Positions 19,299-64,000 of a DNA stretch of 64,000 nucleotides are shown piece by piece (position 1 is the stretch's first letter; each line of letters starts with the position of its first letter). Under the pieces are notes generated by a model. It did no database searches and was not told the origin of the DNA. It worked only from the letters and a program-made list of their open reading frames with translations. The translations under genes and the position numbers were made by a program. This stretch comes from an uncultured Candidatus Saccharibacteria bacterium (GTDB lineage Bacteria; Patescibacteriota; Minisyncoccia; CAIUEV01; JAHKAQ01), in NCBI GenBank assembly GCA_964598205.1, contig CAZRBB010000001.1, positions 156,199 to 220,198 of the forward strand, written 5' to 3'.

Positions 19299-19371
19299 GA
19301 TTCAAAATTTAAAACTCTTAAAATCCTATCACACAAATAATAAAAAAGTTTTAAATAAAAAAAGTAAAACT

Positions 19372-19461
19372 TGGCGGAGAGGCAGGGATTTGAACCCTGG
19401 GTACTCTTGCGAGTACACTTGATTTCGAGTCAAGCCCATTCGACCACTCTGGCACCTCTCC
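19372..19461 (-). tRNA. tRNA-Ser (anticodon CGA), long variable arm, CCA encoded
   Basis: Reverse complement folds as GGAGAGG acceptor, anticodon stem-loop CTTGA-CTCGAAA-TCAAG, long variable arm GTACTCGCAAGAGTAC, T-arm CCAGGGTTCAAATCCCTG, and ends CCA. Confidence 0.85.
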
Positions 19462-19552
19462 AAGAAATATTCAACAGATTTAATCTAGCACTATAAAAAT
19501 TAATCGATAAGCATTTAAGAGGAATATCTCGTGTTTTTTAAAGCCAATGTTT

Positions 19553-19675
19553 TTTAAGGAGGCCCCTTGTTCTCTCCTACTAAAGTTTAAGCTTTTTAGG
19601 CAAAAGAGAAAAAGAACAAGGTGGAGCGAGGCCCGGTCGAGCGCGAGCGTACTCCGAAAAAAATATTGGCTTTAA
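19553..19675. repeat. GC-rich palindromic intergenic repeat, family 'GGAGGCYCCTTGTTC...GAACAAGGYGGAGCGAG...CGAGCGTACTCCGAAAAA' (copy A)
   Basis: ~80% identical over ~115 nt to 22268..22376. Contains internal inverted repeats. The 69-aa minus-strand ORF here is a translation artefact. Confidence 0.7.
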
Positions 19676-19757
19676 AAAAGAAACATAGATTTTTAAAAGA
19701 AAAAGCCGAGCGTCTCTTAGAGAGACAATTTGAATAGTTATTGGCCAGTTTCCAAAT

Positions 19758-19831
19758 GCGCGCCCGAGAGGATTTGAACCTCTGATCTCTGGCTTCGGAG
19801 GCCAACGCTCTATCCAGCTGAGCTACGGGCG
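19758..19831 (-). tRNA. tRNA-Arg (anticodon CCG)
   Basis: Reverse complement GCGCCCGTAGCTCAGCTGGATAGAGCG-TTGGC-CTCCGAA-GCCAG...GGTTCAAATCCTCTCGGGCGCG gives a cloverleaf with anticodon loop CTCCGAA. Confidence 0.85.
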
Positions 19832-19922
19832 CAATTGATTATTGTAATCCCTAATCCTAATAAACTGCCATCTATTTTTACCGCTATTTTTTGTTTTTGC
19901 CTAGCTGTTTTAGAAATCAACA

Positions 19923-20040
19923 GGACTTCTCCATTTGGTGTAGTTCAAGGCAAAACCGAGTAAGCGAGCGACGCGTAATTATGTTACGAAGAGCGAGCGA
20001 CGGAGGTTTTAACGAAGAAATGCACCAAATGGAGAAGTCC
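19923..20040 (+). repeat. Structured repeat element copy 1: 18-bp perfect terminal inverted repeats enclosing a conserved 81-nt GC-rich core
   Basis: ggacttctccatttggtg (19923-19940) is the exact reverse complement of caccaaatggagaagtcc (20023-20040). The core is identical to 21515-21596. Overlaps the rlmN stop and its last ~10 codons. Confidence 0.8.
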
Positions 20041-21037
20041 TATTTCCCGCTAATTGACCACAAGCCGCATTAATACTAGTTCCGCGGCTTTTCCGTACAA
20101 CTACCTCTATCTGCAACTTTTCTAATTCTTTCCTAAAAGCCATCACTGTTTCCTTGGAAGCTGGCTTAAAATCACCGACTGGGTTGCCACTTAAAAGATT
20201 GACCATAAACAAGCCACCCAAGCCCTTTTTTAAAAGTCTCCCCAATTCTTGGGCATCGGCAGGGGAGTCGTTTATTCCCAAAAACAAGGCGTATTCAATC
20301 ATTATTTTACGACGCCTGATTTTTAAATAATCGCGCAAAGCTCCTAGAACCTCTCTTGTCGGATTAGTTATTTCTACCGGCATATATCTTTGTCTTTCCG
20401 CACTATTAGAAAAATGCAGGGAGAAAGCTAAATTTACCTGCCAGTCTTCTTGGGTAAAGGCGCGAATTCCTTCTGTAATACCGGCAGTAGAAACGGAAAT
20501 TTTCCTAGCACCAATATTCAAACCCTCTGGATCATTAATTGCTAGAATCGCTTTTTTTACTTCTTCATAATTCAAAAACGGTTCGCCCATTCCCATAAAA
20601 ACCACGCTCGTTATTTTTTGGTTCTCCTTTTTTAATTCGCGCGCCCAAAAAATAAGTTGCAAAAGAATTTCCCAATTAGTTAGGTTTCTTTTGAATCCGG
20701 CCTGACCAGTAGCACAAAAAGTGCAAGCCAATTGGCAACCAGCCGCCACCGAAACACAAACCGAATTGTTGCCTTCACTGCCTTTAATTAAAACTGTTTC
20801 TACTCGTACTCCGTCAAAGGTTAAGACCGCTTTTTGAGTCTGGTTATCCGTATCCGCTTTTTTTTCAACATCAATACTCAATGGCAGATCTTTTCCTAAT
20901 TCTTCTTTTAGTTCCTTGGGCAATACGGAAACTTGTTCCCAAGAATCAAAAAGGGAAACAAAAATAGCGCGCTTAATCTGTGCCACACGGAAGCGGGGAA
21001 GTCGGCTTAAAATATTAACTAGCTTTTCTTGGTACAT
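20009..21037 (-). CDS. rlmN: 23S rRNA (adenine2503-C2)-methyltransferase, radical SAM
   Basis: CQLACTFCATGQ radical-SAM CxxxCxxC, GMGEP, and C-terminal AACGQL motif. 342 aa. Confidence 0.9.
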   Translation of the reverse strand: MYQEKLVNILSRLPRFRVAQIKRAIFVSLFDSWEQVSVLPKELKEELGKDLPLSIDVEKKADTDNQTQKAVLTFDGVRVETVLIKGSEGNNSVCVSVAAGCQLACTFCATGQAGFKRNLTNWEILLQLIFWARELKKENQKITSVVFMGMGEPFLNYEEVKKAILAINDPEGLNIGARKISVSTAGITEGIRAFTQEDWQVNLAFSLHFSNSAERQRYMPVEITNPTREVLGALRDYLKIRRRKIMIEYALFLGINDSPADAQELGRLLKKGLGGLFMVNLLSGNPVGDFKPASKETVMAFRKELEKLQIEVVVRKSRGTSINAACGQLAGNRTSPFGAFLR

Positions 21038-21122
21038 TTTTTAAAAATCAATCAAACAATCAACCTCACCGCAAATCAGAGCTCGGCCTTGCTCTAATAA
21101 ATTCGTGTCGTGTAATTTTAGC

Positions 21123-21458
21123 TTAGGTTAAACGGTAAAGTAGAGAGATAGAAACAACGGCCAGGAATAGCCCCAAAATCTCTATTGGTAAAAGTTGCTC
21201 TTTAAAGTAAAAAACGCTGATTAAGGCAGAAGAAATTATAAAAGTGAGAGTAAAAATAATTCCAGCGTTTAAGAATTCCATTTTTTTAAAAACAAAGAAC
21301 CAACCAAAAACTGAGAAAAAGTAAATTAAACCGGCCACTCCCAGAAAGATCGGTACGGAAAAAACTTGTTTTAACGCCGCTTTCTTTATTAAGAGGTCCG
21401 CAATAACAATCAAGAAGCTAAAAGATAAAATGACCGGTAGGATACTAAATTTTCCCAT
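21123..21458 (-). CDS. Small 4-TM membrane protein (DMT/EamA-like half-transporter?)
   Basis: 111 aa with four hydrophobic helices. Confidence 0.4.
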   Translation of the reverse strand: MGKFSILPVILSFSFLIVIADLLIKKAALKQVFSVPIFLGVAGLIYFFSVFGWFFVFKKMEFLNAGIIFTLTFIISSALISVFYFKEQLLPIEILGLFLAVVSISLLYRLT

Positions 21459-21496
21459 GGCGATTTTTTACTTTTTATGGAACTGTTTGGCTGGGA

Positions 21497-21613
21497 CTTT
21501 GTGTATTTGAATGCAGTTCAAGGCAAAACCGAGTAAGCGAGCGACGCGTAATTATGTTACGAAGAGCGAGCGACGGAGGTTTTAACGAAGAAATGCATTC
21601 AAATACACAAAGT
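21497..21613 (+). repeat. Structured repeat element copy 2: 19-bp perfect terminal inverted repeats enclosing the same 81-nt core as copy 1
   Basis: ctttgtgtatttgaatgca (21497-21515) is the reverse complement of tgcattcaaatacacaaag (21595-21613). Sits immediately 3' of the clpP stop (21618-21620). Confidence 0.8.
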
Positions 21614-21617
21614 TCAT

Positions 21618-22193
21618 TTATTTAATAATTTTATCTATTACGCCATACTTCTTGGCTTCTTCCGCGCTCATGTAGAAATCACGATCAGTGTCTTTTTCTA
21701 ACTGTAATATTTTTTGACCGGTAGTTTGCGCTAAAATTTTATTTAATTTTTCTTTGGTTTTTAAAATGTGCCTAGCAGAAATTTCTACATCAGAAGCTTG
21801 ACCTTCGGCACCACCCATTACCTGATGAAGCAGGACTTCTGAATTAGGAAGAGCCAGTCTTTTTCCTTTGCAACCAGCAGAAAGCAGTACCGCCGCCATG
21901 CTAGCAGCAATACCCACGCAAATTGTGGATACATCACATTTTACATAATTCATGGTATCAAAAATTGCCAAACCAGCAGTAACGCTTCCGCCAGGAGAAT
22001 TAATGTAAAGCTTAATATCTTGTTCCTTGTTTTGGCTTTCCAAGAAAAGAAGTTGGGCAATAATAGTATTGGCAGTAGGGTCGTCAATAGCACCAGAAAG
22101 AAAAACAATTCTTTCTTTTAAGAGGCGAGAATAAATATCGTAAGCTCGCTCTCCGTATTGTGATTTTTCAATAACAGTAGGTATAAGATTCAT
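21618..22193 (-). CDS. clpP: ATP-dependent Clp protease proteolytic subunit
   Basis: [32 protein letters not shown] (catalytic Ser) and HQVMGG (His) motifs. Confidence 0.95.
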
Positions 22194-22267
22194 AAAATTA
22201 AATTAAAATATTATTCGATAAGTTTAGTATATCCTCTTGACTGGCATCATTTCCAAGCAGATGTCTT

Positions 22268-22376
22268 TAGAGGAGGCTCCTTGTTCCCGCCCATTAAGCT
22301 CCAAGCTTTTTAGAGAGAACAAAACAGGAACAAGGCGGAGCGAGACCCGGTCGAGGTCGAGCGTACTCCGAAAAAG
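22268..22376. repeat. GC-rich palindromic intergenic repeat (copy B of the family at 19553..19675)
   Basis: gaggaggctccttgttcccgcc ... ggaacaaggcggagcgagacccggtcgaggtcgagcgtactccgaaaaag. The ORF 22310..22495 is an artefact. Confidence 0.7.
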
Positions 22377-22425
22377 AATATCGTCTTAGGGAAGGCTCTC
22401 TGTGTTAACTTGTGGTCGCATTGCT

Positions 22426-22493
22426 GATTCTTGGGAAGACTCGCGTAGGCAGACTCAGAGCCTTGTCTGCCCAAGCGAGTCTTCCCAAGAATC
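22426..22493. repeat. Nested perfect hairpin immediately 3' of tig
   Basis: 19-bp perfect inverted repeat gattcttgggaagactcgc/gcgagtcttcccaagaatc with an inner 7-bp inverted repeat ggcagac/gtctgcc. Confidence 0.7.
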
Positions 22494-22501
22494 AAGCGCT
22501 T

Positions 22502-23797
22502 TTAAACCTCCAAGAATTCTTTCTTTAACCAAGCAATCACCTTCTGTTTACTCAAAAAGTTTTCGGCATAGGCTTTGACTCGCTCTGGATCTATATCTTT
22601 AGTTTCGGCCCCGCTTTGACGGAATTCGTTGAGCAATTTTTCTGTTTCTTTTTCTATTTCTTCTTTTGTGGCGCTGATTTCTTTTTCTTTGCCGATGGTC
22701 ATTAATGCTAGTTCGGTCTTAACTCTTTTTTTGGCATCATCGTGCCAATCACCTAAAAGAGCCTTTTTGGTTGTTTTTACTTTTTCCAAATAAGTTTCCA
22801 AGGAAAGTCCCATATGGGTAAGCTGGTTTTCTAGTTCCGAAAGCATTTTATTTTTTTCTTCTTCCACAAAAACATTGGGAATTTCCGTCTTGGTTTCTTC
22901 GGCAATCGTCTTTATTAAATCCTCTAATGATTCATGAATCATTTTTGCTTCCTTTTCGTTTCTTAGATTATTTCTTAGGCTTTCTCTTAAATTTTCTGCA
23001 CTGGTAAAACGACCCAGTCCCTTAGCAAAGTCATCGGTTACTTCTGGTAGCTCTTGTTCCTGTACTAATTTCATTAAAATCTCGAACTCTCCTTTTTTAC
23101 CTTTTAGATTGTCGTCGTAATAATCTTTAGGAAAATCAAGAGAAAAATTTTTCTTTTCTTCGGCTTTTAATCCAATTAGTTGATCTTCAAAGCCGGGAAT
23201 AAATTTTTCTTCGCCAATAACCAGCGGATGATTCATGCTAGAACCACCCTCCACCGGCACTCCAGAGAAAGAAAGCTTAAAGTTTATTTCTACCAAGTCA
23301 CCCTTCTTAGCTTCACGATTCACAGTAACTGTTTTGGCTCGTGATTTTCGCAGATGGTCTAAGACTTTAGTTGTTTCTTCTTCTGTAATTTTAATTTCTT
23401 CTAAATTTGGTTTTTTAAATTTTAATTTTTTAAGATCTGGTAGTGTTATTTCGGGGAAAACACTTATTCGGGCTTCGTAAATCAAACCGGTTTCTGGGGA
23501 ATTTTCTTTAACATCTATTTTAGGGGAACCAAAAATATCTAGCTTTTTCTCCAAAAGAGCTGCTAAAAATGTTTTATTGATTGCTGTTTCTAAGACTTCT
23601 TTTTTAAAACCTTCTTCTCCGGCCACTTTTTTCACTGCTTCTACGGTAGCCTTGCCAGGGCGGAAACCAGGGAGAGGGTTTTTCTTGGAATAAATCAACG
23701 CCGCTTTTTTGGCAAAAGAAGCTAGTTCCTGTTTAGAAATGTTTATTTCTAAAATAATTTCTGATTGAGGTAAATCTTTTAGGGTAACTTTTGGCAT
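22502..23797 (-). CDS. tig: Trigger factor
   Basis: N-terminal ribosome-binding region with GFRPGKA motif. FKBP-like middle and C-terminal chaperone arm domains. 431 aa. Confidence 0.85.
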   Translation of the reverse strand: MPKVTLKDLPQSEIILEINISKQELASFAKKAALIYSKKNPLPGFRPGKATVEAVKKVAGEEGFKKEVLETAINKTFLAALLEKKLDIFGSPKIDVKENSPETGLIYEARISVFPEITLPDLKKLKFKKPNLEEIKITEEETTKVLDHLRKSRAKTVTVNREAKKGDLVEINFKLSFSGVPVEGGSSMNHPLVIGEEKFIPGFEDQLIGLKAEEKKNFSLDFPKDYYDDNLKGKKGEFEILMKLVQEQELPEVTDDFAKGLGRFTSAENLRESLRNNLRNEKEAKMIHESLEDLIKTIAEETKTEIPNVFVEEEKNKMLSELENQLTHMGLSLETYLEKVKTTKKALLGDWHDDAKKRVKTELALMTIGKEKEISATKEEIEKETEKLLNEFRQSGAETKDIDPERVKAYAENFLSKQKVIAWLKKEFLEV

Positions 23798-26165: not shown

Positions 26166-26231
26166 CTTGAGTTTAATGGGAAAGGGGGTGACTGTCAATA
26201 AAGCTAGGAATTTTTTAATAAAAATTGAAAA

Positions 26232-26289
26232 ATAACCCAATAACTATTTTAAACAGAATTGAGTTGCTTCTGTTTAAAATAGTTATTGG
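26232..26289. repeat. 23-bp perfect inverted repeat (hairpin/operator-like) just 3' of the ArsP-like gene
   Basis: cccaataactattttaaacagaa - ttgagttgc - ttctgtttaaaatagttattggg. Confidence 0.7.
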
Positions 26290-26318
26290 GTTATTTCCTC
26301 TTCTACATAAAAATGCTC

Positions 26319-30613: not shown

Positions 30614-30866
30614 CTATTTTTTTTAATTTTGACTCATTTTCTCACAAATTTTAAGATTTGTCTTTTATTTAATCCCAGGAGATAAATTTTTAATTACGAA
30701 TTTTGAGTTTTGATTAAAATTCTAATTTTGAATTTTAAAACAATTTAGAATTTTGAGTTTCCAATTTTATTCAAAATTAAAAACTCAAAATTAAAAATTA
30801 AGGGTAGCGTTTTCAATTCTGATTGGATTCGCTACAATTAAAAAATAACAGTAAGTATTCAAAATC

Positions 30867-36622: not shown

Positions 36623-36870
36623 TTTAGATTCTTTTTATTTTCTCTTTCGTTTCTTTTTAAACACTTTTGTCTAAGCTGAGCCTAGTTCTTTTTCATTAAC
36701 AGGAACAATCATAGCATATTTAAAAATCAGTCTAAAGTCGGCTAATTACGAATTATGTTCCGTTTTTTCTCGGAAGCAATGTTCCCAGAGGAAGCTTCTT
36801 GTTCCCATGAAAGAGACCAGAGGAGTATCCATTGGGTAGACTAACGAGGAGGCTCCTTATTCCCACGAAA

Positions 36871-36938
36871 GAGAGTAGAGGAGTATCCATTGGGTAGACT
36901 AAGAGCCATGTCTACCCAATGGATACTCCTCTACTCTC
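36871..36938. repeat. 29-bp perfect inverted repeat (10-nt loop) in the smc/response-regulator divergent intergenic region, preceded by two ~57-bp direct repeat units
   Basis: gagagtagaggagtatccattgggtagac (36871-36899) is the reverse complement of 36910-36938. The upstream units at ~36786-36900 share GGAGGCTCCTT(G/A)TTCCC with repeats A and B. Confidence 0.8.
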
Positions 36939-52392: not shown

Positions 52393-52396
52393 CAAG

Positions 52397-52433
52397 TAAA
52401 AAAAGAATGACCAATTTGGTCATTCTTTTTTTA
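52397..52433 (+). terminator. Rho-independent terminator after tRNA-Arg
   Basis: aagaatgacc-aattt-ggtcattctt hairpin flanked by A-run and T-run (bidirectional-looking). Confidence 0.7.
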
Positions 52434-52444
52434 CTTTTGACTAG

Positions 52445-52720
52445 CGCAGGACTTGAACACGAAGGGGGTCGGGGAAACTGTAGTTTCCCCGTTGGGGGTG
52501 ACAGCGAGTCCCGTTGAAAACGGGACGAGCGCCAGAGGGCGGAAGCCCTATGGAGAGCGAGCAAAGCGAGCGAGTGAAAGTCCTGCCATTAATATCTTGA
52601 ACGGGGATGGGGTCGGGAAACCGGGAGGTTTCCCGTGGCGGAGGAATCGGAACCGATGGGTTCCGAAGCGGAGCGAACCGCAGCGGAGCGGAGGTGAGTG
52701 AGCAGTGAAATTCCTGCCCG
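52445..52720 (+). ncRNA. GC-rich structured tandem element (two ~135-nt units), candidate structured RNA or tRNA-derived repeat; identity unknown
   Basis: Both units run from 'cttgaac' to 'gtgaaa(g/t)tcctgcc'. Each carries two strong hairpins at equivalent positions with different sequences (ggggaaactgtagtttcccc vs gggaaaccgggaggtttccc; cccgttgaaaacggg vs ggaaccgatgggttcc). All six reading frames are open, which is typical of non-coding GC-rich DNA. Confidence 0.4.
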
Positions 52721-52893
52721 AGGATATTCAAAATATTTAATATACTATAAAAATCTTCGAATCAATCATTGAATAATTTGTTATTGATCTTTTACAAAAT
52801 AAAGACCGCCAGTATTTGCCACTGGAAAGCAATGAATCATAAAGTTCCTAGTACACTAGGAACTAGGAACTTTTTTTGTTATGATATAAGCAC

Positions 52894-55069: not shown

Positions 55070-55306
55070 GCCACTTGAACTCGGAACATAATTCACCCCT
55101 AACCATCCTCCCATCTCTCCAAACCCCAAAATAAATTTAATTTAGACGCTTGCCCACCATAGCTTTAGCGAAGGAGGGATAGCTCGTCAAAAAAAAGAAT
55201 ATCTCCGTTAATTCCATAATGAGTCTTATTATGGAATTAACATTTCCAATATTGGAATCATAATATCTACTTCAAACCTTCCCATCTTTTGACCTAATCT
55301 CTCCAA

Positions 55307-56714: not shown

Positions 56715-56961
56715 AGTTTTCGATGTAACTTTAAGAATGAATTCTTAAAAATTGTTTTTGGTATAAATAAAACATTCAATCTTGAAAGGGAAAGAGGTGT
56801 GCGATTCCCCAAAGCCATCTTAACTTGGCTGGGGTAAAGTATGCTGTGCAAACCCTCTCAAAACCCCTTATAATTCGGTACAATTACCGTATTAAGTTCA
56901 GACAAACCCTTATTTTGGGATGCTGATCCCGCCAAAATTAATCTCAATAAGAACAATCAAA

Positions 56962-58109: not shown

Positions 58110-58604
58110 ATGAAAAATAAATTAAGAAAATCAGTTATTGTGACTTTTTTCCTCCTGATGTTATTAAGCGTTTCCGTATCTTTATTTAATTTTTGGCAAA
58201 TAAAAAATCTAAAGAGAACTAGCAACGCAAGGATAGAAGAGCTGGAATACTTCTACAATGATTTTAGGGAGATTTCTAGAAAAGAACCAAAGAAGAATAT
58301 ACCGGAAGAAATTTCTCCGGAAAACACAGAAAAAGCCTGGGCAATTCATGAGCAGGATAACGAAAACTTAAAAGAAAGATCGCTGAAACTTTCTCCAGAC
58401 GGAACAAAGAAGGCTTATTTTCAGGAAAAGTTTATCTCAGATATTAAAGATATTGGGAATACCGATTATATTTCTTTAATCGTAGAGAAAAAAAACGGGG
58501 ATAATGAAATCTATTTCAAATTCCACCGCCCAAACCCTATCAAAACCCCATATAATTTGGTACAATTACCACATCAAGCAAGAGTAAAACTGCAAAATAC
58601 TTAA
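58110..58604 (+). CDS. Hypothetical signal-anchored protein
   Basis: N-terminal TM helix. The 3' end overlaps a conserved 40-nt intergenic motif, so the real stop may be earlier. Confidence 0.35.
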   Translation: MKNKLRKSVIVTFFLLMLLSVSVSLFNFWQIKNLKRTSNARIEELEYFYNDFREISRKEPKKNIPEEISPENTEKAWAIHEQDNENLKERSLKLSPDGTKKAYFQEKFISDIKDIGNTDYISLIVEKKNGDNEIYFKFHRPNPIKTPYNLVQLPHQARVKLQNT

Positions 58605-63646: not shown

Positions 63647-64000
63647 TTTTTTTAAATAAAAATCATGTTCACTTTTTATAGCACATCTTTATTCAATTAT
63701 GAATTACGAATTTTGAATTTCGAAATAATTTAGAATTTAAAATTCGTAGTTCAATCGAAATTTCTAATTAACCACCAGCATAATTTAAATTCAAGAGGAG
63801 ACGCTCAATTTTTTCCGGCGAAAAATTTCGCTAGAATATTGGAAAAATTTTCGGAACCGAAAATATTTTCAAAGAGCATGCTCAACGGTTAATTCAAAAC
63901 AGACAAAATTTCACCTAGAGTCTTATTGAGGTTGTATTTAGAATTGGTAAATTTTTTTGAAGAAAATGAAATTCATAATAGTGACGAGGGTGAAAATATT

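Follow-up and report, generated by a model that had tools for sequence, protein, structure and literature searches.

Two palindromic copies at the rlmN and clpP gene ends

We analyzed a stretch of 64,000 nucleotides (nt) from an uncultured Candidatus Saccharibacteria bacterium (assembly GCA_964598205.1, contig CAZRBB010000001.1, positions 156,199 to 220,198), which we refer to as the window. Among the genes tig, clpP, an EamA-like membrane protein gene, rlmN and two tRNA genes, a palindromic element of about 120 nt, denoted element A, was found twice (copies A1 and A2; Table 1). All the neighboring genes are on the minus strand. The two copies have the same orientation, are offset by 1573 base pairs (bp) and share a stretch of 86 nt (19939-20024 and 21512-21597) in which the sole difference is a T or a C at the third base. 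An earlier reading made from the sequence alone, referred to here as the sequence-only reading, had reported two same-orientation copies with an identical 81-nt core that are G+C-rich in A+T-rich surroundings. Both observations hold, as the two cores match base for base and the G+C content of the element is 43-47%, compared with 30-42% across 2-kilobase (kb) segments of the window. The limits that it gave for the second copy, 21497-21613, were corrected to 21494-21615.

We also considered whether the two copies could stem from an assembly duplication, which the sequence-only reading had named as a possible refutation. Over 21 kb, both A copies included, the window is matched at 100% identity by the JGI contig 3300045131 (129.8 kb). 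A Logan contig of 1550 nt, found in 6 samples, runs from one core to the other with both ends inside A cores, as expected where a repeat splits the assembly graph. An assembly artefact is thus excluded by the JGI and Logan assemblies. The overlapping assemblies (2 JGI, 6 Logan samples) were all 100% identical and represent one clonal organism.

Both copies were found at the 3' ends of minus-strand genes, A1 at that of rlmN and A2 at that of clpP, in agreement with the sequence-only reading. A1 gives rlmN its last 10 codons (RTSPFGAFLR) and its TAA stop codon, the latter situated within the core. The gap between clpP and the EamA-like gene is largely taken up by A2. Its right tip is 2 nt away from the stop codon of clpP, and 35 nt separate the element from the start of the EamA-like gene (21458). 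A comparison of the rlmN C-terminus with its orthologues, which had been proposed earlier as a check, showed that RlmN of the 59 listed homologues ends 2-12 residues past CGQL, which places A1 at the natural end of rlmN. We suggest that A1 landed two codons past the conserved CGQLAG of RlmN and replaced a naturally variable tail with RTSPFGAFLR and a stop codon, and that A2 was inserted 2 nt past the stop codon of clpP. Both copies would then provide an mRNA with a highly stable hairpin at its 3' end. This is probably a tolerated side effect and not a designed feature, since ribosomes cannot complete rlmN without melting half of A1.

In the block from A2 to A1, the EamA-like gene precedes rlmN (20009-21458). 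In the two relatives with enough sequence (L134, 5683-7453; L136, 10001-11533), rlmN comes first and the EamA-like gene second, downstream of dnaK. The A copies thus bracket a two-gene block that is circularly permuted relative to these relatives. We considered a Campbell-type integration, or a cassette with A2 and A1 as its borders, and rejected both, as the arms match within each copy and are not hybrid.

Table 1 Coordinates of element A and its parts, the neighboring genes and the other hairpin families. Positions are those of the window, except where the contig L145, from beyond its right end, is named.
Feature	Position	Strand	Remark
Copy A1, whole palindromic element, 118 nt	19923-20040	+	covariance-model score 139.5 bits
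A1 left arm	19923-19940	+	GGACTT / CTCC / ATTTG / G / TG
Junction base	19941	+	T in A1, C in A2; opposite G20022: U.G wobble (A1), C-G pair (A2)
A1 core, 81 nt, identical in both copies	19942-20022	+	AGTTC/GAAAT stem, AAAACC/GGTTTT stem, internal loop, apical hairpin CGTAA-ttatg-TTACG
A1 right arm	20023-20040	+	CA / C / CAAAT / GGAG / AAGTCC; perfect complement of left arm; encodes RlmN TSPFG
Copy A2, whole element, 122 nt	21494-21615	+	covariance-model score 147.2 bits
A2 left arm	21494-21513	+	GGACTT / TGTGT / ATTTG / AA / TG
A2 core	21515-21595	+	81/81 identical to A1 core
A2 right arm	21596-21615	+	CA / TT / CAAAT / ACACA / AAGTTC; one tip wobble, G21495.T21614
tRNA-Ser	19372-19461	-	
tRNA-Arg	19758-19832	-	
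rlmN	20009-21037	-	
rlmN stop codon TAA	20009-20011	-	inside A core
EamA-like membrane protein	21123-21458	-	111 residues
clpP	21618-22193	-	stop codon 21618-21620
tig	22502-23797	-	
Family B, copy B1	19534-19679		~146 nt
Family B, copy B2	22248-22394		~146 nt
Family B, copy B3	L145 8902-9120		
Family C, copy C1	22425-22494		30-32 bp arms
Family C, copy C2	36870-36939		30-32 bp arms
Family C, copy C4	L145 8947-9020		30-32 bp arms
Family E, window copy	26230-26296		
Family E, second copy	L145 1940-1996		

Arms, core and fold of element A

The sequence-only reading had held that the arms of the two copies differ completely. However, when the arms were aligned from the core outward, 14 of 20 columns were found to be identical between A1 and A2. 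The identical blocks are collinear, and GGACTT, ATTTG and TG are common to both left arms. An alignment to the A1 arm as good as that of the A2 arm was reached by 0.09% of 54,840 genomic 19-21-mers, the arms themselves counted, and the empirical p for arm homology is ~9e-4. In the window, the motif GGACTT is present 26 times when both strands are counted, yet in A1 and A2 it is located exactly at the outer limit of pairing. Each arm sequence is unique to its own two sites in the 64-kb window at up to 3 mismatches, where shuffles predict 0.01-0.02. On this alignment, the arms of A1 and A2 are homologous. As they also have identical tips, they belong to the element and travel with it, like terminal inverted repeats.

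The arms of each copy pair with their own partner, as had been noticed from the sequence alone. In A1, pairing is perfect over 18 bp, or 19 when the flanking A-T pair is counted, and in A2 it covers 19-20 bp, to which the tip adds a G.T wobble and a G-C pair. Arm mismatches within a copy number 0 in A1 and 1 in A2. The differences between the copies are confined to two short patches, CTCC/TGTGT and G/AA. These amount to six differences (4 substitutions and 2 single-base indels), and all six are mirrored on the partner arm. Two differences are one-sided (T19941/G20022 in A1 and G21495/T21614 in A2), and both are wobble pairs on the plus strand only. The arms differ at 6 of 20 columns and the core at 0 of 81 (Fisher p 3e-5). 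Drift alone cannot give mirrored arms beside an unchanged core, and the closing helix is actively held paired. The earlier proposal that a long closing helix is selected in a structured RNA thus stands in its first part, the upkeep of the helix, whereas its second part, the structured RNA, is not the meaning that we favor.

On the plus strand, the element is predicted to fold into a continuous rod, in which a closing helix of 19-22 bp is followed by the AGTTC/GAAAT stem, the AAAACC/GGTTTT stem, an internal loop and the apical hairpin. The symmetric internal loop of the A1 core is a direct repeat of GCGAGCGACG (19964-19973 and 19993-20002). This 10-mer occurs twice per copy, and the window contains 4 instances against 0.62 expected. 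The facing GCGAGCG repeats on the plus strand form G-C pairs alternating with tandem G.A mismatches (predicted pattern ((..((..(( ), whereas the same positions on the minus strand give pyrimidine-pyrimidine clashes, and this difference accounts for the greater stability of the plus strand. The RNA fold energies of A1 and A2 were -56.5 and -53.0 kcal/mol on the plus strand and -44.5 and -42.7 kcal/mol on the minus strand, and the DNA fold energies were -29.0 and -30.2 versus -24.2 and -26.7 kcal/mol. The folding check that had been proposed earlier was run against shuffled controls, and both strands folded better than these, with z-scores for A1 and A2 of -9.5 and -8.6 (plus) and -6.9 and -7.8 (minus).

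One explanation of this fold is a functional structured RNA, a cis-acting or antisense module in which the helix covaries under selection and the core is fixed by function. Possible roles would be an RNase III processing or stabilizing hairpin in the tig-clpP-eamA-rlmN-tRNA array, or a small RNA on the plus strand. The stem differences are fully compensated, both one-sided changes are compatible with G.U pairing on the plus strand only, and that strand, on which the GCGAGCG repeats pair rather than clash, is more stable by 10-12 kcal/mol. In addition, structured modules (A2 and copies B1, B2 and C1 of the families described below) fill most intergenic gaps from tig to tRNA-Ser, and the genome carries an RNase III gene. 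However, the favored strand is antisense to every flanking gene, and promoter and terminator scans gave nothing above background in the A region. The rlmN stop codon is inside the core, so translation must open the hairpin in the mRNA sense. The nearest relatives have no such element at the same genes. Rfam 15 gave no gathering-score match in the window and none overlapping either copy at E up to 10 (19300-22600), consistent with the earlier view that no known Rfam family is present at the element. Two of two wobbles on one strand would be seen by chance in 1 of 4 cases, and stepwise selection hardly reaches mirrored indels. We consider a functional RNA unlikely. Ribozyme, riboswitch, signal recognition particle RNA and RNase P were rejected as identities for A and for the families B and D described below, as none had Rfam support.

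The sequence-only reading had further suggested that A1 might act as a terminator-like module. This suggestion was not borne out. No T-run follows the hairpin on either strand (the minus-strand downstream sequences are TGTTGATTTCT for A1 and CCAGCCAAAC for A2), and the terminator scan reported no site at either copy.

Other hairpin families in the same genome

We extended the analysis to the accessible sequence of the same genome, ~103 kb that was assembled by walking via exact-protein look-ups and includes contigs from beyond the right end of the window (L144, L145 and L146). Three further hairpin families, denoted B, C and E, were found. The copies of family B start with the motif AGGAGGCyCCTTGTTC and end with GGAGCGAGgCCCGGTCGAG..CGAGCGTACTCC, and their cores are 79-89% identical. 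B1 is located between the two tRNA genes and B2 upstream of clpP. The closing arms of family B are homologous (p = 6e-4) and include compensatory pairs; the closing helix has 22 bp with one mismatch in B1, is a perfect 23 bp in B3 and is degenerate in B2.

The arms of family C are perfect in C2 and C4 and contain two mismatches in C1, and the copies share the apex TTGGGyAGAC-TmAGAGCCwT-GTCTrCCCAA. The arms of C2 and C4 differ at 4 of 30 positions, in mirrored dinucleotide patches (GT/CC and GG/CA), and each of the two copies forms a perfect palindrome of 30 bp. Compared with C2, the 10-nt loop of C4 is inverted. C4 is nested in the loop of the inner helix of B3, a loop that comprises only 4 nt in B1 and B2, so that a hairpin lies within a hairpin. 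This nesting, together with the flipped loop, points to duplicative, insertion-like behavior in this genome. At C2 itself, the Logan contig L132 starts at window position 36922 and so breaks inside the palindrome. A tandem duplication of 57-nt units (36788-36902, 89% identical) comprises a B-type 5' motif, the C2 left arm and a half-apex, and the C2 right arm matches the proximal unit at 30 of 30 positions and the distal unit at 28 of 30.

The window copy of family E (26230-26296) has perfect arms of 29 bp and a 9-nt loop, TTGAGTTGC. The two copies share this loop, the apex CAGAA/TTCTG and the block CAATAACT, and an 8/9-nt stem patch is replaced and mirrored between them, with one exception. 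A truncated left arm of the family (ACAACCTCAATAA) is located at the right end of the window (63923-63935). When families A, C and E were taken together, all but two of the between-copy arm differences were mirrored, and the loops and apexes were most conserved. The impression gained from the sequence alone was thus right in part: the genome has a recurrent design with an invariant center and a variable self-complementary stem, but the stems are diverged homologues that are not derived from target sequence.

These families bear on the mechanism that the sequence-only reading had offered as its alternative to a structured RNA, in which a mobile core recreates the arms from the target as an inverted target duplication at each insertion. 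Such a mechanism could explain arms that are self-complementary within a copy and different between copies, and at their outer ends the closing helices of B1 and B3 do look locus-specific. However, three collinear blocks, the identical tips (GGACTT...AAGTCC/AAGTTC) among them, are common to the A arms, the arms of C2 and C4 and of the two E copies are homologous between unrelated loci, and the truncated E arm at the right end of the window stands with the rest of its hairpin missing. We know of no transposition chemistry that gives inverted target duplications of 18-20 bp, which also counts against this mechanism. We find it very improbable for element A, and target-derived arms of ~20 bp were rejected across all the families because the A, B, C2/C4 and E arms are homologous between loci.

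Further repeats were observed in the same sequence. Two tandem G+C-rich units of ~135 nt, D1 and D2 (52444-52722), immediately follow tRNA-Arg(TCT) with its palindromic terminator of 21 bp (52394-52436); about half of their aligned columns are identical, and they have no Rfam match. Several short hairpins, together with GAGCGAG/GCGAGCG motifs, are present in each unit. The closing pair of D1, GCAGGACTT...AAGTCCTGC, is similar to the tRNA T-arm and to the A tips. An inverted copy of the tRNA-Arg 3' end (52446-52458) had been considered as a flank duplication, a reading that we rejected as this copy is the left end of D1 (GCAGGACTT...AAGTCCTGC). A 'GGACTT...AAGTCC superfamily' joining A and D1 was also rejected, as by our estimate ~0.8 such pairs per window are expected by chance. 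The purine motif GAGCGAG/GCGAGCG is common to A, B and D and is on the same DNA strand in all of them, whatever the gene orientation.

Past the right end of the window, a segment of ~1.6 kb (L144 1-2041, L145 1-1947 and L146) encodes a family-2 glycosyltransferase and has 385-nt inverted repeats at its borders. Depending on the JGI contig, it adjoins one or the other of two neighbors, as an invertible segment would, and one boundary of the 385-nt repeat lies inside the left arm of an E hairpin. A+T-rich intergenic palindromic repeats with units like TAATTACGAATTTTGAATTT were found at 2704-2804, 30685-30800 and 63690-63763 of the window and at L141 8287-8376 and 9725-9858. A 12-nt periodic repeat of the GGAGCAGGAG type (2363-2497) lies in a minus-strand gene for a TM1266-like protein of 385 residues (1452-2609) and is apparently a low-complexity coding repeat. 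In the Fic/AbiEii cluster, a 48-nt direct repeat (88% identical; 56849-56896 and 58531-58578) has its copies near either end of a Fic/RhuM gene, the first just upstream of the start, and could be a shared regulatory site.

Origin and upkeep of element A

The explanation that we favor, to which we give about an even chance, is that A1 and A2 are paralogous copies of a lineage-specific, non-coding and non-autonomous hairpin repeat of ~120 nt, of the REPIN/MITE/ERIC-like kind, whose stems are kept by arm-to-arm copying, by selection or by both. The repeat unit would be the whole element including its arms, with conserved tips (GGACTT...AAGTCC), a stem and the invariant G+C-rich 81-nt apex. It may spread, or may have spread, as a folded single-stranded hairpin, and a candidate protein would read the apex and the tips by sequence while the mid-stem would only have to pair. 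When one arm mutates, the other arm could serve as the template for the nascent strand in a hairpin formed during replication (intrastrand template switching, or quasipalindrome correction), and a change would then either be lost again or become fixed in the two arms simultaneously. The identity of the apex may come from sequence-specific constraint, from gene conversion between copies 1.6 kb apart, or from both. A hairpin intermediate under selection, of the sort argued for REPINs (PMC3116915), would work toward this result as well. Template switching accounts better for the mirrored indels and multi-base patches, as these are hard to reach by independent compensatory mutations.

We compared element A with known systems. 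The sequence-only reading stated that it knew of no described element with this architecture, which is too strong, since A groups with the small palindromic repeats of bacteria (REPIN, MITE and ERIC-like). It differs from them by its invariant apex and variable mirrored stem. REPINs and REPs are small, non-coding, extragenic and non-autonomous hairpin repeats, and their symmetric arm mutations imply a single-stranded hairpin intermediate (PMC3116915). Like these, A is non-coding, forms a hairpin, lies at gene ends and has an excess of mirrored arm changes (6/6). However, in REPs the arms are conserved and the spacer is variable, whereas in A this is reversed (apex 81/81, arms different at 6 of 20 columns). 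REPINs also occur in tens to hundreds of copies beside a RAYT gene, whereas A has two copies and no RAYT domain was found in the annotated ~103 kb.

The MITE, ERIC, Correia and RUP elements are similar to A in their size of ~100-130 bp, their identical inverted-repeat tips and their lack of coding capacity (PMC3184786, PMC10969869), as well as in inserting between genes or at gene ends, where they may supply new C-terminal codons and a stop. As in MITEs, terminal inverted repeats are shared between the A copies (tips GGACTT...AAGTCC/AAGTTC, 14 of 20 columns). However, MITEs are expected in many dispersed copies, whereas A has 2 in ~103 kb, with no target-site duplication and no parent insertion sequence or transposase in that sequence. 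In addition, mirrored changes of the terminal inverted repeats are not expected in MITEs, in which each end is bound as duplex DNA, whereas those of A are mirrored.

The integron attachment site attC was also considered. The attC sites are imperfect palindromes of ~60-140 nt at gene 3' ends, in one orientation, with variable paired stems, and are recognized as folded single strands. They have conserved ends (RYYYAAC/GTTRRRY) and a variable center, whereas A ends in GGACTT/AAGTCC and has an invariant center. No integrase was found in the window, and the genes flanked by A are housekeeping genes (clpP and rlmN).

Template-switch (quasipalindrome) mutation is a documented route to the creation and upkeep of perfect stems (PMC8794818, PMC7202029, PMC13100816). 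Its signature of simultaneous multi-base or indel changes in two arms, and of loop inversion, is seen in the A, C and E arms and in the C4 loop, as exemplified by the A patches (CTCC/GGAG versus TGTGT/ACACA, and G/C versus AA/TT), the C2/C4 patches and the flipped loop. It is a mutational process rather than an element family, and it explains the paired arms but not the nature of the core or its presence at two loci.

Several results weigh against the lineage-specific repeat. A covariance model built from A1 and A2 (R1) found only these two copies in the ~103 kb. No transposase, RAYT, integrase, reverse transcriptase or HUH enzyme was detected with Pfam among the called genes of this sequence. 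No target-site duplication was found; the flanks, ATCAACA/TATTTCC for A1 and TGGCTG/ATTTATT for A2, contain no direct repeat. No presence/absence polymorphism or empty site was seen among the 2 JGI and 6 Logan samples, which are all identical. In 5.8 billion protein clusters, queried with the three joined open frames of the core, no protein reading through the core was found, which suggests a low copy number. The mobility and function of A are read from two copies, and an apex with 0 of 81 differences beside arms diverged by 30% needs an extra assumption, either constraint, conversion or nesting. Finally, we infer template switching from its products, and selection for pairing might lead to the same outcome.

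Model R1 found no copy in 49 kb around rlmN of the three nearest relatives, and neither a comparable element nor any long perfect inverted repeat is present in this sequence. The RlmN identity of these relatives is 52-59%, which is too distant for empty sites to be seen at the nucleotide level. A scan of genome contigs for AGCGAGCGACG-N(10-30)-AGCGAGCGACG listed matches that are chance occurrences in G+C-rich DNA, none with the core by BLAST, in a collection where the source genome was not reached. A scan of metagenome contigs for AAAACC...GCGAGCGACG...GCGAGCGACG gave two chance matches in G+C-rich DNA, in a collection from which the source contig is absent. Viral-contig scans gave no match, and BLAST of phage and plasmid collections gave no match to the A element. 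The copy count that had been proposed as a check stands, with model R1, at 2 copies in ~103 kb and none in the 49 kb of the relatives; the collection scans missed the source genome. On this sequence, element A is restricted to its lineage.

The contrast between the invariant core and the diverged arms could also be explained by a nested insertion of two ages, in which a young 81-nt core was inserted at the dyad of two old, diverged, REP-like palindromes. In a variant, the inserted unit would be an 86-nt TG...CA sequence with imperfect 8-bp ends (TGCAGTTC/TGCATTTC). The host palindrome would have arms of the form GGACTT-N-ATTTG-N-TG with a single central base, T or C. A single step would then explain a core identical at 81 of 81 positions beside arms diverged by 30%, as well as the junction base as the sole 'core' difference. 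A hairpin within a hairpin is present in the genome (C4 in the B3 loop), and the window contains palindromes that have no repeat core at their center, with arms of 21 bp (52394-52436) and 14 bp (55207-55241). There are also precedents for insertion into palindromes: IS1397 (cited as reference 41 in PMC3116915) is reported to insert into the loops of E. coli palindromic units, ISKpn1 also inserts into such units, and SDR5 inserts into the cyanobacterial HIP1 palindrome (PMC4390886, PMC5861425). In these systems, as in A, a constant unit lies between the palindrome halves. However, the known inserts are complete insertion sequences that carry a transposase, or else modules of 21-27 nt in an 8-bp palindrome, whereas A has neither an empty host palindrome nor an enzyme in the accessible sequence. 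No core-less GGACTT...AAGTCC arm palindrome was found in the ~103 kb or in the relatives, and both hosts would have to be occupied at exactly the same position. Neither a target-site duplication nor, in the called genes, a transposase supports an insertion. In addition, a pre-insertion palindrome lying wholly in the rlmN frame would give a tail of 19 residues, longer than that of any homologue. A nested insertion is the main competitor of the explanation that we favor, but is in our view unlikely.

The recurrence of an invariant apex, mirrored stem patches and nesting across at least four families (A, B, C and E) raises the question of whether the genome has a hairpin-specific propagation system, directed by structure and of a kind not yet described. 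Candidates would be transposition or recombination that targets single-stranded hairpin loops, or a dedicated re-templating or diversifying of stems, and GAGCGAG/GCGAGCG may serve as a signal. The alternative is ordinary repeat decay. We regard such a system as quite unlikely. If true, dedicated hairpin-targeting machinery would matter for genome plasticity in reduced genomes.

As a lineage-specific repeat, element A would represent a new family of small palindromic repeats in the Candidate Phyla Radiation/Patescibacteria, where mobile and repetitive DNA is poorly catalogued, and one of its copies would have rewritten the C-terminus of an essential rRNA methyltransferase (RlmN). Families A, C and E of one clonal genome offer a clean natural case of concerted arm-to-arm hairpin evolution, of which the cause is likely template switching, or else selection that acts on a single-stranded intermediate. 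These hairpins also carry a warning for the reading of such structures: compensatory stem changes, even mirrored indels, are by themselves no proof of a functional RNA, because arm-to-arm copying in a DNA palindrome yields the same pattern.

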